DNA of 64,000 nt from Escherichia phage PA52. The stretch is taken from the sequence record KP682392.1; one strand, given 5' to 3'. Position numbers: made by a program. This document shows, piece by piece, positions 9,001 to 12,000 of the stretch (positions are counted from its first letter, which is position 1; the number at the start of each line of letters is the position of its first letter).

Positions 9001-12000
9001 GCTGGTTTGCGTTTGCATTGTAAGACCACTCGTGATGGGGTTGGCCTGTGTAGTTTGTCGGAGCTAATCGCCTCCTGACTTTGCAGGTTTGCGCGACGAG
9101 CTCTACGGCGAGAAGCTGCGGTGCCTTTAAATTCTGTTTTTCTGGACATAGATTCCTCCCGAATAAACTTTGGCGATGCAATCTCGAAGCTCCTCCTGAG
9201 ACGGTTGCTTCGGCATTGCATCCCACAGCTTATGTGGTTGGGTGATCTGGCTTTTCAGCCACGTAGTCGAGAGTCGACGTTGTTTAAAGAGCCTGCCAGT
9301 CTGTTCCATTTGGCTTCCAGCGTCCTGCTGATGGTTAAATAGTACGATATGTACTTCACTTGGTCAATACAATTTGTTCTAAAACGGGGCGTTTTTTTAC
9401 AACGCTTTGTATTTAATAGTATTGTTTTTTAGCGTGGGTGTATTGCCTCGGCGATGTAAGGAGAGATCAGAATTGCGTTGTTTAGTGAGTTGTATCTATT
9501 TATTTTCCAATAAATACAATTGGTTATGTGTTTTTTTGGGCGAGAGGAAAAGAAAACCCGGCATGGAGGCCGGGTTGATGATTAGCGGTGTGGCCTTGAG
9601 CGATAATGCTCACACACATGTTCAAGATTTCCATGCCTTATCCGTTCATAGGCATTCACATGAACTTCTCGATCGAATTGGTCATTCAAATTGTATGTAG
9701 ACATCTGTGTTTTCTCATATTGGCGGCAGCCCTACAACCGCTTGAAAAAATGTACCAGACGCGCTAAGGTTACATCGCAAATATTGTGTACCTTAACAAG
9801 GGCTCCTTTTGGAGGCTCTGGTTAAACAGCATCAATGTCGGACTGGGGAGTTGGACATTGTGCTGAATGCTTTTGCATTATTGAGGCCGAACGTAAACCT
9901 TCAGAATTGAAGAGATGCGTTCGGCTTCTTCGTTTGTGATATCGTTAGGAATGCCTTTAATCGTTACTGTAACCCCTGATTCAGGTCGAAGAACTACTGG
10001 AAGATCATAGGTATGAAGTGCATTAGCCTTGCCTTCGACTTTTGTTGGTTCGCCAGTCAAATCTTTTTCCTCACTGGATTCTTTGTCAATCGGAGTGTAT
10101 GGGATTTCTTCACCAGACTGGAAAGCTACAAACTTTTTGATTGCACTTTCCATGCGGCTTTTATATGCAGTAATGCTGCTGTCGCTAGGCTTCGGCTCAG
10201 TTGCGTTGATGTATCGCTCGGCAAGCTCATTCACATCAAGCTGAGTAACATCACCCATTTCCTCTTCTTGGACTACCGTTAAGAGGCGAGCGGATGAGTT
10301 TTTTAAATTTCGAGCGGTGGCCTCCTTCATTATGTTCAGCGACATAAGCTCTTCAAGGAAGTCCTTGAATGCCTGCACGCTAACGTTTGACTTTGCCATT
10401 TGCTCTCTCTCTAAGTTATTGACTCAGATCGAGTTTATCCAGGAATTGATTTGCATGCAAGACTCAAGTCTTGAGAATTTCCGTTCAAGATCCACTCTCA
10501 ATAAAAAAGGCCGCACCTCTGCGACCTTTCATCTCCTAAATCTCTTTTCTCTTACCTAAAGAAACAGCAGGCTGGGTCAGCCCTAACAACTTCAAGTGCA
10601 TCGGTCAGAGAAAGCTCCGTGCTATACAGGTGTTATTTCATATCTTTTTGCATCCAATAAATTTTCCATCTGTCCAGAGAGCGGATGCACTTGATTCTTG
10701 TTGATGGCAGGACGTTTTTTCACCTGCCTCACCCTGCCATACAGGACGCTGCTCACCGATATCTATCGTCCGGTCATTGATGTTATAGACAATATCCAGA
10801 TCATTACGGATATACTCAGATGGCCTTATGCTTTCAATGAATAGATGAACTTCTTTTTGACCGCTTGATACTCATGGCCATTAAACTCCATCTATCCTCT
10901 TTACCCAAACGTCTCTTCAGGCCATTGGCTGGCGATAACTTTCCCCACAACGGAACAACTCTCATTGCATGGGATCATTGGATATTGCGGGTTTAGTGGT
11001 TGTAGAAACACCTGACCGCTATCCCTGATCAGTTTCTTGAAGGTAAATTCATCACCACCAAGTCTGGCTATGCAGAAATCGCCGGGCTCAACAGCTTGCT
11101 CAGGGTCAACCAGAATTAACATCCCGTCAGGAAAACTAGGTTTGGAACCTGTTGGTGCGGTCATTGAGTTACCTTCAACCTCAAGCCAGAATGCAGAGTC
11201 ACTGGCTTTTTTGGTTGTGCTTACCAATCTCTCCGCATCACCTTTGGTAAAGGTTCTGAGTTCTGGAGAGAACATCCCAGCCTGAACATGAGAAAAAACA
11301 GGGTACTCATATTGTTTTTTAACTGGGGCCGATGAGTATTCGCCAACAGGTGAAAATGTCCCGTCGTGGTTGAATGATATGTTATCAATACCAAGGTATT
11401 TAAACACCACACCAATATCACTAAGAGATGGATGACGAGATCCGCGCAACCAGTGTCCAATTCCACCCTGCGTCATACCTAGCTCTTCGGCTAACTTCTC
11501 TTGAGTTATGCCGAGCTCTTTCATTCTGGATCTAGCCAGTTCATACCATTTCATTTTCATGTCCTTATTATTACGCTCTGTACTGGAACCATCCATGCAC
11601 AATGTGTATTTTTACTTGTATTTGAGAAGTACATATTGTATTTTTTTATTCGTGGTTACTATGGAGGGCATATGAGCAACCTACGAAAATATCGAGAGTC
11701 ACTGAATATCTCTCAAACAACACTTGCTAAGGCAGTTGGATGCACACAGGGAGCTATCGGACATTGGGAATCTGGTCGTCGCTTCCCAGACCTTAAAACA
11801 TGCCGTGCTCTTGTTGCGTGTCTAAACAAGTTAGGCGCAAAAGTAAGTCTTGATGACGTGTTCCCGCCGGAGCACAAAGCCGCTTAATAAGCGGAGCCGC
11901 TCTTTGTAACAACGGACATTCGTCCTACGTCGCTGAAAAGCGAGTCCCAAGATATCTGACCAACTAAGGCCATATGCGTTTCCACGCATACCTTTCAACT

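Follow-up and report, generated by a model that had tools for sequence, protein, structure and literature searches.

Sequence evidence for a three-part cassette with a pseudoknotted RNA between two protein genes in the cI–N slot of Shiga toxin phages

What is carried in the slot between cI and N of Shiga toxin (Stx) phages? The question was pursued in a 64,000-nucleotide stretch of Escherichia phage PA52 (KP682392.1; the whole stretch is referred to as the window), which represents a Sp5/PA27-type Stx2a phage and matches phage PA27 in its coordinates. The ~1.7 kb round the locus are 100% identical in E. coli O157:H7 Stx2a and Stx1 phages (VT2-Sakai/Sp5, the PA series, Stx2-1717 and Nil2). A first-pass annotation had described the slot as holding one open reading frame (ORF) for an acidic protein of 173 aa, set between cI and pL/N. 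Both the ORF, which is on the minus strand, and its position between cI and OL/pL/N were borne out; the protein, here called X, is acidic throughout, with an isoelectric point (pI) of 4.85 and a charge of -8.4. It corresponds to ECs_1184 (ECs1184) of strain Sakai, which is ORF23 of Sp5, p23 of VT2-Sa and ORF b63 of the Stx1 phage, and is labelled "hypothetical protein" in all records. The statement that the slot contains one ORF did not stand, since a conserved structured RNA and a conserved ORF of 40 aa, here called Y, follow X. Judged from the sequence, the locus is a self-contained, mobile three-part cassette of X, a structured and pseudoknotted RNA, and Y, with the predicted order terminator, GATC-rich promoter, X, RNA, Y and t_imm terminator, all on the minus strand and read from one predicted promoter (Table 1). 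The three-part architecture and the RNA appear to be undescribed in the libraries and literature searched.

The RNA makes up the spacer between X and Y. RNAalifold gave zero pairs on a mixed alignment of short and long spacers, and the two types had to be separated. For the short type (11 lineages), 32 pairs were predicted, 15 of them with compensatory changes, and the hand-drawn structure comprises P1, P2, P2b, P3 and P4, a further helix that contacts the Shine-Dalgarno region of Y, and a pseudoknot in which an internal loop pairs with the loop of P4. In the alignment, 85.1% of cells were paired, compared to 38-47% in controls slid by 1-3 columns, and 23 pairs were changed on both sides, a number that was reached by 0 of 500 shuffles. 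Pairing was 100% in P2 and 92% in the pseudoknot, with four of six pairs covarying in each, and an AAUC-containing segment was found to pair with the Shine-Dalgarno region of Y. The covariance model of the short type revealed one match per locus, always directly 3' of X, in 30/30 short-type loci (90-166 bits).

The window contains the long type. Its spacer has a minimum free energy of -54.1 kcal/mol (z-score -3.9; 0/200 shuffles), and bases 9806..9800 are contested by Px and the pseudoknot. By hand-mapping, P1, P2, P3, P4 and the pseudoknot were traced in 8/8 long-type lineages, with differing sequences. The exchange of sequence within kept helices is evident from comparing P2 and the pseudoknot of the window (ACCAGA/UCUGGU and GAGCCC/GGGCUG, the latter with 5/6 paired) with those of L045 (AGCUGC/GCAGUU and AGCCCUU/AAGGGCU), L055 (AGCUGUAA/UUACAGUU and AGCCCUU/AAGGGCU), SH2026Stx1 (GGAGGA/UUCUCC and UUACC/GGUAA), L057 (GGAGGC/GUCUCC and AAACCC/GGGUUU), L008 (GGAGA/UCUCC and UACACC/GGUGUA) and L024 (GGAGG/UCUCC and UACACCU/AGGUGUA). 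A covariation-backed structure immediately upstream of a coding region, as in a cis-regulatory leader, is thus what the spacer presents. As a separate observation, the apical part of P1 (9828..9864) is inverted between the window (CCAACTCCCCAGTCCG) and phage Oslo (L003; CAGACTGGGGAGTTGG) with the stem being kept, which looks like a hairpin-loop flip by template switching.

A search of Rfam 15 with positions 8000..12500 gave no match at E<=1, and four other loci gave only sub-threshold, unrelated matches. Scanning viral contigs with a sequence pattern returned 25 matches, of which 23 were true RNAs and two were due to chance; all 23 true RNAs were flanked by X and Y, including those on two contigs that had not been reached via the protein. 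A looser pattern scan of genome contigs yielded 80 chance matches and no covariance-model match. In the text searched, the catalogues of small RNAs of Sakai do not mention the locus.

Y begins 147-175 nt past the X stop in 73/77 loci and belongs to one of three sequence types: type A of ~47 aa, which is zinc-ribbon-like; type B of 50-57 aa (phrog_33859); and type C of 40-44 aa (phrog_21154), which is the type of the window. Types A and C may constitute one fast-evolving family because both share a Y..RHGN motif. Types A and B are strongly basic, with charges of +5.6 and +9.7, respectively. Comparison of the window with Salmonella gave a nonsynonymous rate (dN) of 0.021 and a synonymous rate (dS) of 0.357 for Y, and the protein sequence of Y is kept in SH2026Stx1 despite heavy nucleotide divergence. 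X is also under purifying selection (dN/dS ~0.15-0.25); that on Y is the stronger. The Y types do not track the phylogeny of X, which is 77% identical between L045 with type A and Oslo with type C. Searching the Y types against Pfam, NCBIfam and PDB revealed nothing beyond weak zinc-ribbon hints. Y had also been considered as an optional partner, as tblastn with type C reached E. coli and Salmonella and found none in Proteus, Serratia and Enterobacter; this was rejected, those loci holding type A or B at the same spacing.

For X, an AlphaFold2 model from a 106-sequence alignment had a mean predicted local distance difference test score of 89.6 and predicts two folded domains joined by an acidic linker. 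The N-terminal one has the four-helix, SAM-like fold of the core-binding domain of tyrosine recombinases. A C-terminal catalytic domain with the R-K-H-R-H/W-Y active site is absent, the protein ending at residue 173 and giving no Phage_integrase match in Pfam; because of this, X is not a recombinase. Foldseek searches of PDB and BFVD returned nothing besides integrase core-binding matches. Profile searches of Pfam, NCBIfam and PADLOC-DB v2.0.0 assigned X to no family (zero PADLOC matches), a PDB sequence search was empty, and PHROGs places it in phrog_2602, of unknown function. The view of the first-pass annotation that the protein has no recognisable motif is not supported, given its integrase core-binding-like fold; phrog_2602 was the only sequence family found. 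A whole-library profile search revealed 653 cluster representatives related to X, all of 165-200 aa and full length. With the C-terminal domain alone as profile, only fragments of the same family were obtained from a set of 5.8 billion proteins, and nothing from PDB. Homology to FliZ, a precedent for a stand-alone regulator of core-binding type (PMC3367168), was tested and rejected, as hhalign gave a probability of 1.5% over a local match of only 20 columns. Literature searches by accession and phrog identifier found nothing.

Table 1. Features of the cassette and its borders in the window (one strand, 5' to 3'; domains of X are given as residues)
Feature	Coordinates	Strand	Description
Downstream terminator, t_imm homologue	9548..9577	-	8-bp stem; hairpin and tail 9555..9576, z-score -3.6
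Y	9582..9704	-	40 aa, type C, phrog_21154; His- and Cys-rich; unannotated in RefSeq Sakai and PA27
Structured RNA	9705..9877	-	~170 nt; X-Y spacer; covariation-supported, pseudoknotted
P1	9864..9854/9839..9828	-	RNA helix, hand-mapped
P2	9822..9817/9759..9754	-	RNA helix, hand-mapped
Px	9816..9811/9806..9802	-	RNA helix, hand-mapped
P3	9796..9790/9770..9764	-	RNA helix, hand-mapped
P4	9741..9738/9726..9723	-	RNA helix, hand-mapped
Pseudoknot	9805..9800 with 9732..9727	-	Hand-mapped
X (ECs1184, Sp5 ORF23)	9878..10399	-	173 aa; two folded domains and acidic linker
X, N-terminal domain	residues 8-94		Integrase core-binding-like, four helices (AlphaFold2 model)
X, linker	residues 102-127		Acidic, disordered (AlphaFold2 model)
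X, C-terminal domain	residues 130-168		Beta-beta-alpha, ~40 residues (AlphaFold2 model)
Predicted promoter	10427..10473	-	-35 TTGCAT 10460..10455; -10 TAAACT 10437..10432; spacing 17
TCGATC	10427..10432	-	Abuts -10
16-bp palindrome CAAGACTTGAGTCTTG	10458..10473	-	Overlaps -35
Upstream intrinsic terminator	~10499..10530	-	Conserved 5' edge of module; 11-bp stem and U6
DUF3024 pseudogene	10555..10895	-	Directly after cI; tblastn with intact SH2026Stx1 DUF3024 protein
cI	10901..11596		One side of X; OL/pL/N on the other side

The two terminators that had been proposed on either side of the ORF were both found to be real. The upstream one, between X and cI, has a centroid energy of -15.9 kcal/mol (z-score -3.3), and its core, GGTCGCAGArrTGCGGCC-T6, is kept in E. 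coli, Salmonella, Proteus, Serratia and the distant SH2026Stx1 loci. As its sequence stays conserved where the DNA round it has diverged, it belongs to the module, and it is predicted to insulate the cassette from cI (pRM/pRE) transcription. The downstream one is homologous to t_imm of lambda, its region being 87.5% identical to the 3' end of lambda rexB, and on sequence grounds it is the putative end point for transcription of the cassette and, on the right-hand side of the cargo slot, the breakpoint of recombination. The adjoining segment from t_imm to OL (9400..9585) is 87-92% identical in hundreds of lambdoid prophages with unrelated cargo upstream (rexB, DUF1828, BRO and NYN-domain genes), and is the predicted common recombination joint for cargo exchange.

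The candidate promoter upstream of X fared less uniformly. Its position is conserved, and homologous loci have better hexamers there, namely TTGCAA-17-TAGAAT in Proteus, TTGACT-17-AAAAAT in Serratia and TTGATC-17-TAAACT/TAGACT in a divergent subfamily; the hexamers of the window are too weak for a consensus promoter scan, falling below its threshold. The inverted repeat overlapping the promoter was confirmed as a 16-bp palindrome, which occurs once in the window (0.08 expected) and is kept only in the E. coli/Salmonella group, not being conserved in Proteus or Serratia. GATC is scarce in the phage (160 observed vs. 249 expected) and 6.8-fold enriched at -100..-15 of the family promoters (32 observed vs. 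4.7 expected in 18 lineage representatives). The top hexamer of these promoters is TCGATC (12/18 lineages vs. 0.54 expected); it lies in or adjoins the -35 or the -10, its position differing among lineages (loci L004-L079). This clustering suggests Dam/SeqA-sensitive expression or an autoregulatory, GATC-containing operator. A study of Dam and intA (PMC12455584) provides a precedent for a Dam-regulated prophage promoter and was otherwise judged irrelevant, as was HepS (PMC13043305) for the cassette as a whole. In one promoter subfamily, an inverted repeat with co-varying outer arms holds two GATC sites at a distance of 19 bp, e.g., TTCATCGATCGAT...ATTGATCGATGAA. Elsewhere in the window, four GATC at an exact 12-bp period were observed at 31035..31074 within the ORF 30894..31700 (+); this CGATCATGAAAT-type repeat encodes IDHE/IDHK/TDHE repeats and is the sole tight GATC cluster in the otherwise GATC-depleted phage.

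The slot itself proved to be a cargo hotspot, as the first-pass annotation had supposed. Prophages of E. coli O18 and UTAK-3 encode CI and Cro 100% identical to those of the window and an N identical in 90/91 residues; their homology to the window breaks exactly at the cI stop (10901) and resumes at t_imm (9577/9575). In place of the cassette, they carry PDC-M24A/B-like candidate defence genes (PDC-M24A/B in the O18 prophage) or an SDH Clp-fold protease. Other cargo beside identical CI and Cro means that the cassette is swappable cargo, not part of the CI switch. This cI type is present in 776 E. coli genomes (coverage >=80%), and X in only 234. The cassette is present in 234/5426 complete E. 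coli genomes, nearly all of Stx2a O157:H7 lineages. Presence/absence polymorphism between near-identical phages and flanking terminators were thus both found, as expected of a moron in the sense of Juhala et al. 2000. The proposed moron layout, with its hotspot position, insulating upstream terminator and own predicted promoter, stands in these parts and does not stand as a single gene.

Relatives of X that are >50% identical occur in lambdoid prophages with several types of immunity, and there always between cI and N, sometimes with extra cargo inserted between cI and the module. Distant ones are found beyond gene P and convergent with it (Enterobacter), among replication or methylase genes, and among tail genes; one X, 22% identical, lies at the edge of a comM-inserted island with serine recombinases, where the spacing to Y is kept, and one is located beside a PD-Lambda-4 defence gene next to guaA (PD-Lambda-4_A match in L007 with PADLOC). 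Cargo beside repressors or family members was observed to include a SIR2_2 protein, PDC-M24A/B-like genes and a full-length PD-Lambda-4_A (L010 10065..11669; L082 3153..4459; L007 1358..5128), which is consistent with these positions as defence hotspots.

The ORF has not gone unnoticed, two studies having dealt with it. In-frame, marker-free deletions of all unknown Sp5 genes were attempted in a K-12 lysogen by Mondal et al. 2016 (PMC5155283), and only those of ORF21 (ECs1180) and ORF23 (ECs1184) failed. The authors stated that the deletion "appears to be lethal" and regarded both genes as probably required to keep lysogeny stable. As their design retains 9 nt at each ORF end, the promoter, the RNA and Y would have been left intact in the attempted deletion of X. 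ORF21, the other gene concerned, encodes an acidic protein of 83 aa (phrog_2471) without family annotation and lies just downstream of N, at 8567..8818 (-). In a 2025 study, in which ECs1184 was assayed as an RNA-binding candidate, the protein was present in Sakai cultures and its enrichment with RNA was near-significant (TRAPP, which purifies total RNA-associated proteins; false discovery rate 0.065) (PMC7618764).

We tentatively consider the cassette to be a module akin to addiction or abortive-infection systems, with Y restrained by X and the RNA, a reading that we hold as possible rather than probable. The conserved pair of X and RNA would gate the small, swappable Y. The RNA would act as the leader of Y, folding near its ribosome-binding site, and X would keep Y silent or harmless either via the RNA or via the promoter with its GATC. 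On this view, losing X alone would do harm and losing the whole cassette would not, which is the logic of an addiction module, and in this prophage slot such logic would most readily serve abortive infection or exclusion of other phages. In favour of this is that the deletion of X with promoter, RNA and Y intact was not obtained, yet prophages with identical CI and Cro naturally exist without the whole cassette. Also in its favour are the kept X-Y spacing, the flanking of all 23 true RNAs by X and Y, the covariation-backed RNA, the acidity of X set against the basic Y of types A and B, the presence of ECs1184 in Sakai cultures with its near-significant RNA enrichment, and the candidate defence cargo of sister prophages and beside one family member. 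The RNA is a likelier partner of X than Y is, since the Y types are exchanged without regard to X, whose C-terminal domain is near-identical across Y types. A core of X and RNA conserved with three types of Y resembles effector swapping, and a phage-exclusion or defence role, which the first-pass annotation had proposed for X, is plausible for the cassette, none of whose three parts has an enzymatic domain of effector type.

Several observations weigh against this reading. At pI 6.96, the Y of the window is close to neutral. Between loci with a type B and those with a type C Y, the C-terminal domain of X hardly differs, which makes a specific X-Y recognition unlikely, and the four loci of the most distant clade (4/77) carry X and no recognisable Y. 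The long-type RNA of the window is assigned by hand-mapped helices, the covariance model of the short type missing the long types. The core-binding-like domain of X has a charge of -4.5, an acidity uncommon among nucleic-acid binders, and over-expressed ECs1184 was labelled no better than green fluorescent protein in a crosslinking/polynucleotide kinase assay (PMC7618764). Concerning the failed deletions, the report gives no step at which the construction of ORF21 and ORF23 mutants failed, and the primers are not in its supplement (PMC5155283). A technical failure is possible because these two unknown ORFs are the ones on either side of N-pL-OL.

This last point leads to an account without any addiction, according to which the two genes could not be deleted due to a cloning or allelic-exchange artefact from OL/pL-N (and kil) in the homology arms, the cassette being ordinary accessory cargo. 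The coincidence that exactly these two ORFs failed would be explained, and the arms were indeed cloned in the high-copy plasmid pDONR201 and transferred on a suicide plasmid into the lysogen (PMC5155283). The ~510 bp between the end of ORF23 and pL leave room for short arms without pL, and both the conserved three-part design and the strong constraint on Y are left unexplained; we consider this account unlikely. The version of the first-pass annotation, in which X alone is an exclusion or abortive-infection protein expressed in the lysogen and the RNA and Y are incidental, agrees with the moron-like layout at a hotspot and with the occurrence of family members as separately oriented units in many prophages. 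It is very improbable given the linkage of X to RNA and Y in 73/77 loci, the lack in X of an effector-type domain or of a match in PADLOC, Pfam or NCBIfam, and the stronger purifying selection on Y.

Two further accounts assign the main role to one component, and each is regarded as decidedly unlikely. X could be a non-catalytic, integrase-derived DNA-binding regulator, like FliZ or the SPbeta repressor MrpR, that represses its own GATC promoter and a phage or host target and stabilises Sp5 lysogeny, with the RNA as a mere leader of a co-transcribed small gene. Against this stand identical CI/Cro switches that work without X, the presence of X also in nin regions, tail regions and non-phage islands, its acidic domain, the lack of conservation of the palindrome in Proteus and Serratia, the lack of a second operator-like motif in the window and the negative hhalign comparison with FliZ. 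Alternatively, the RNA could be the active element, either as a riboswitch-like leader sensing a ligand or signal or as a stable non-coding RNA controlling Y, with X travelling along in a separate role. The multi-helix, pseudoknotted fold just upstream of an ORF, its invariant single-stranded UAGYGG, CAAG and CACCC, and the competition of Px and the pseudoknot for shared bases would fit such a role; against it, the RNA was never found without X, and gene context offers no ligand candidate because Y is neither an enzyme nor a transporter.

The cassette was compared with known systems. As in the lambda rexAB slot, it shares its orientation with cI, stops at the homologous terminator t_imm, and its place has varying content among phages of one immunity type. 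Stk of 933W and BstA of BTP1 are encoded at the equivalent place. The cassette resembles none of RexA, RexB, Stk and BstA in sequence or fold, and, unlike rexAB, is separated from cI by a terminator, is not co-transcribed with it, and is made up of a protein, an RNA and a mini-protein.

Prophage cargo slots often hold type II toxin-antitoxin modules, which are mobile. The cassette shares with these modules an acidic upstream protein with an N-terminal domain of nucleic-acid-binding type, a small protein downstream that is basic in the case of Y types A and B, a palindrome at the promoter, and an upstream gene whose loss alone is reported to be unobtainable (PMC5155283). It differs in having a structured RNA of 147-175 nt instead of an overlap between the genes, in that X and Y match no toxin, antitoxin or other family of Pfam or NCBIfam, in the 40-57 aa size of Y, and in the absence of co-variation between X and the type of Y. 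Among type I systems, tisB, zorO and dinQ have long structured toxin leaders. The cassette has in common with these systems and with type III systems (ToxIN) that a small protein gene is directly preceded, near its ribosome-binding site, by a structured RNA. The Tandem Repeats Finder detected no array of tandem RNA repeats, the hallmark of type III, in 9300..10950, and only a two-copy 15-mer inside X; in contrast to both types, Y is neither endoribonuclease-sized nor hydrophobic and has a conserved 173-aa protein partner. An antisense RNA is not known.

Non-catalytic derivatives of the core-binding domain are FliZ in E. coli and MrpR/YopR and SroF in SPbeta-like phages. X differs from tyrosine recombinases by its missing catalytic domain, its different beta-beta-alpha C-terminal domain and its acidity, and from FliZ by the lack of a detectable sequence relation, so that the resemblance is one of functional analogy only. 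Retrons and other defence systems that unite a structured non-coding RNA with proteins are likewise compact mobile units of a conserved structured RNA, a conserved protein and a variable small partner; unlike them, the cassette contains no reverse transcriptase or other enzyme, X has no PADLOC match, and the RNA is unrelated to msr-msd and without an Rfam match.

At the borders of the cassette, the 375 bp from cI to the first terminator had been taken as non-coding, which was refuted by tblastn. They contain a DUF3024 pseudogene with 81-85% protein identity to the SH2026Stx1 gene, split over two frames by two frameshifts and with one internal stop. Intact DUF3024 occupies the same place in Proteus prophages and SH2026Stx1, giving the order cI - DUF3024 - terminator - X, and the pseudogene is the putative leftover of the first cargo gene of the ancestral cassette. 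On the side of N, the 60-aa ORF ECs_5705 (phrog_3137), which is found conserved and with an annotation in several phages, lies at 9127..9309 (-) and overlaps both the nutL region and the 5' end of N.

The RNA appears to represent a new class of structured RNA, pseudoknotted, absent from Rfam and always found alongside phrog_2602 and phrog_21154, phrog_33859 or the zinc-ribbon type, and X represents an integrase core-binding fold recruited outside recombination. A restraint of Y by X would explain the ten-year-old oddity that one "hypothetical" Sp5 gene beside cI cannot be deleted. In a broader and more doubtful version, the cassette would stand for an undescribed mobile class of addiction or defence elements of ribonucleoprotein type, spread over temperate phages and islands of Proteobacteria, in which a catalytically dead, integrase-derived X reads a pseudoknotted RNA, and possibly GATC methylation at the promoter, and gates a swappable, zinc-ribbon-like mini-effector. 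If a defence or addiction role is true, its combination of a variable mini-effector and a conserved gate would amount to a minimal architecture of a new kind. Given the Stx2a O157:H7 lineages that carry the cassette, any effect of it on lysogen stability, superinfection or induction of the toxin phage would bear on the biology of the pathogen.

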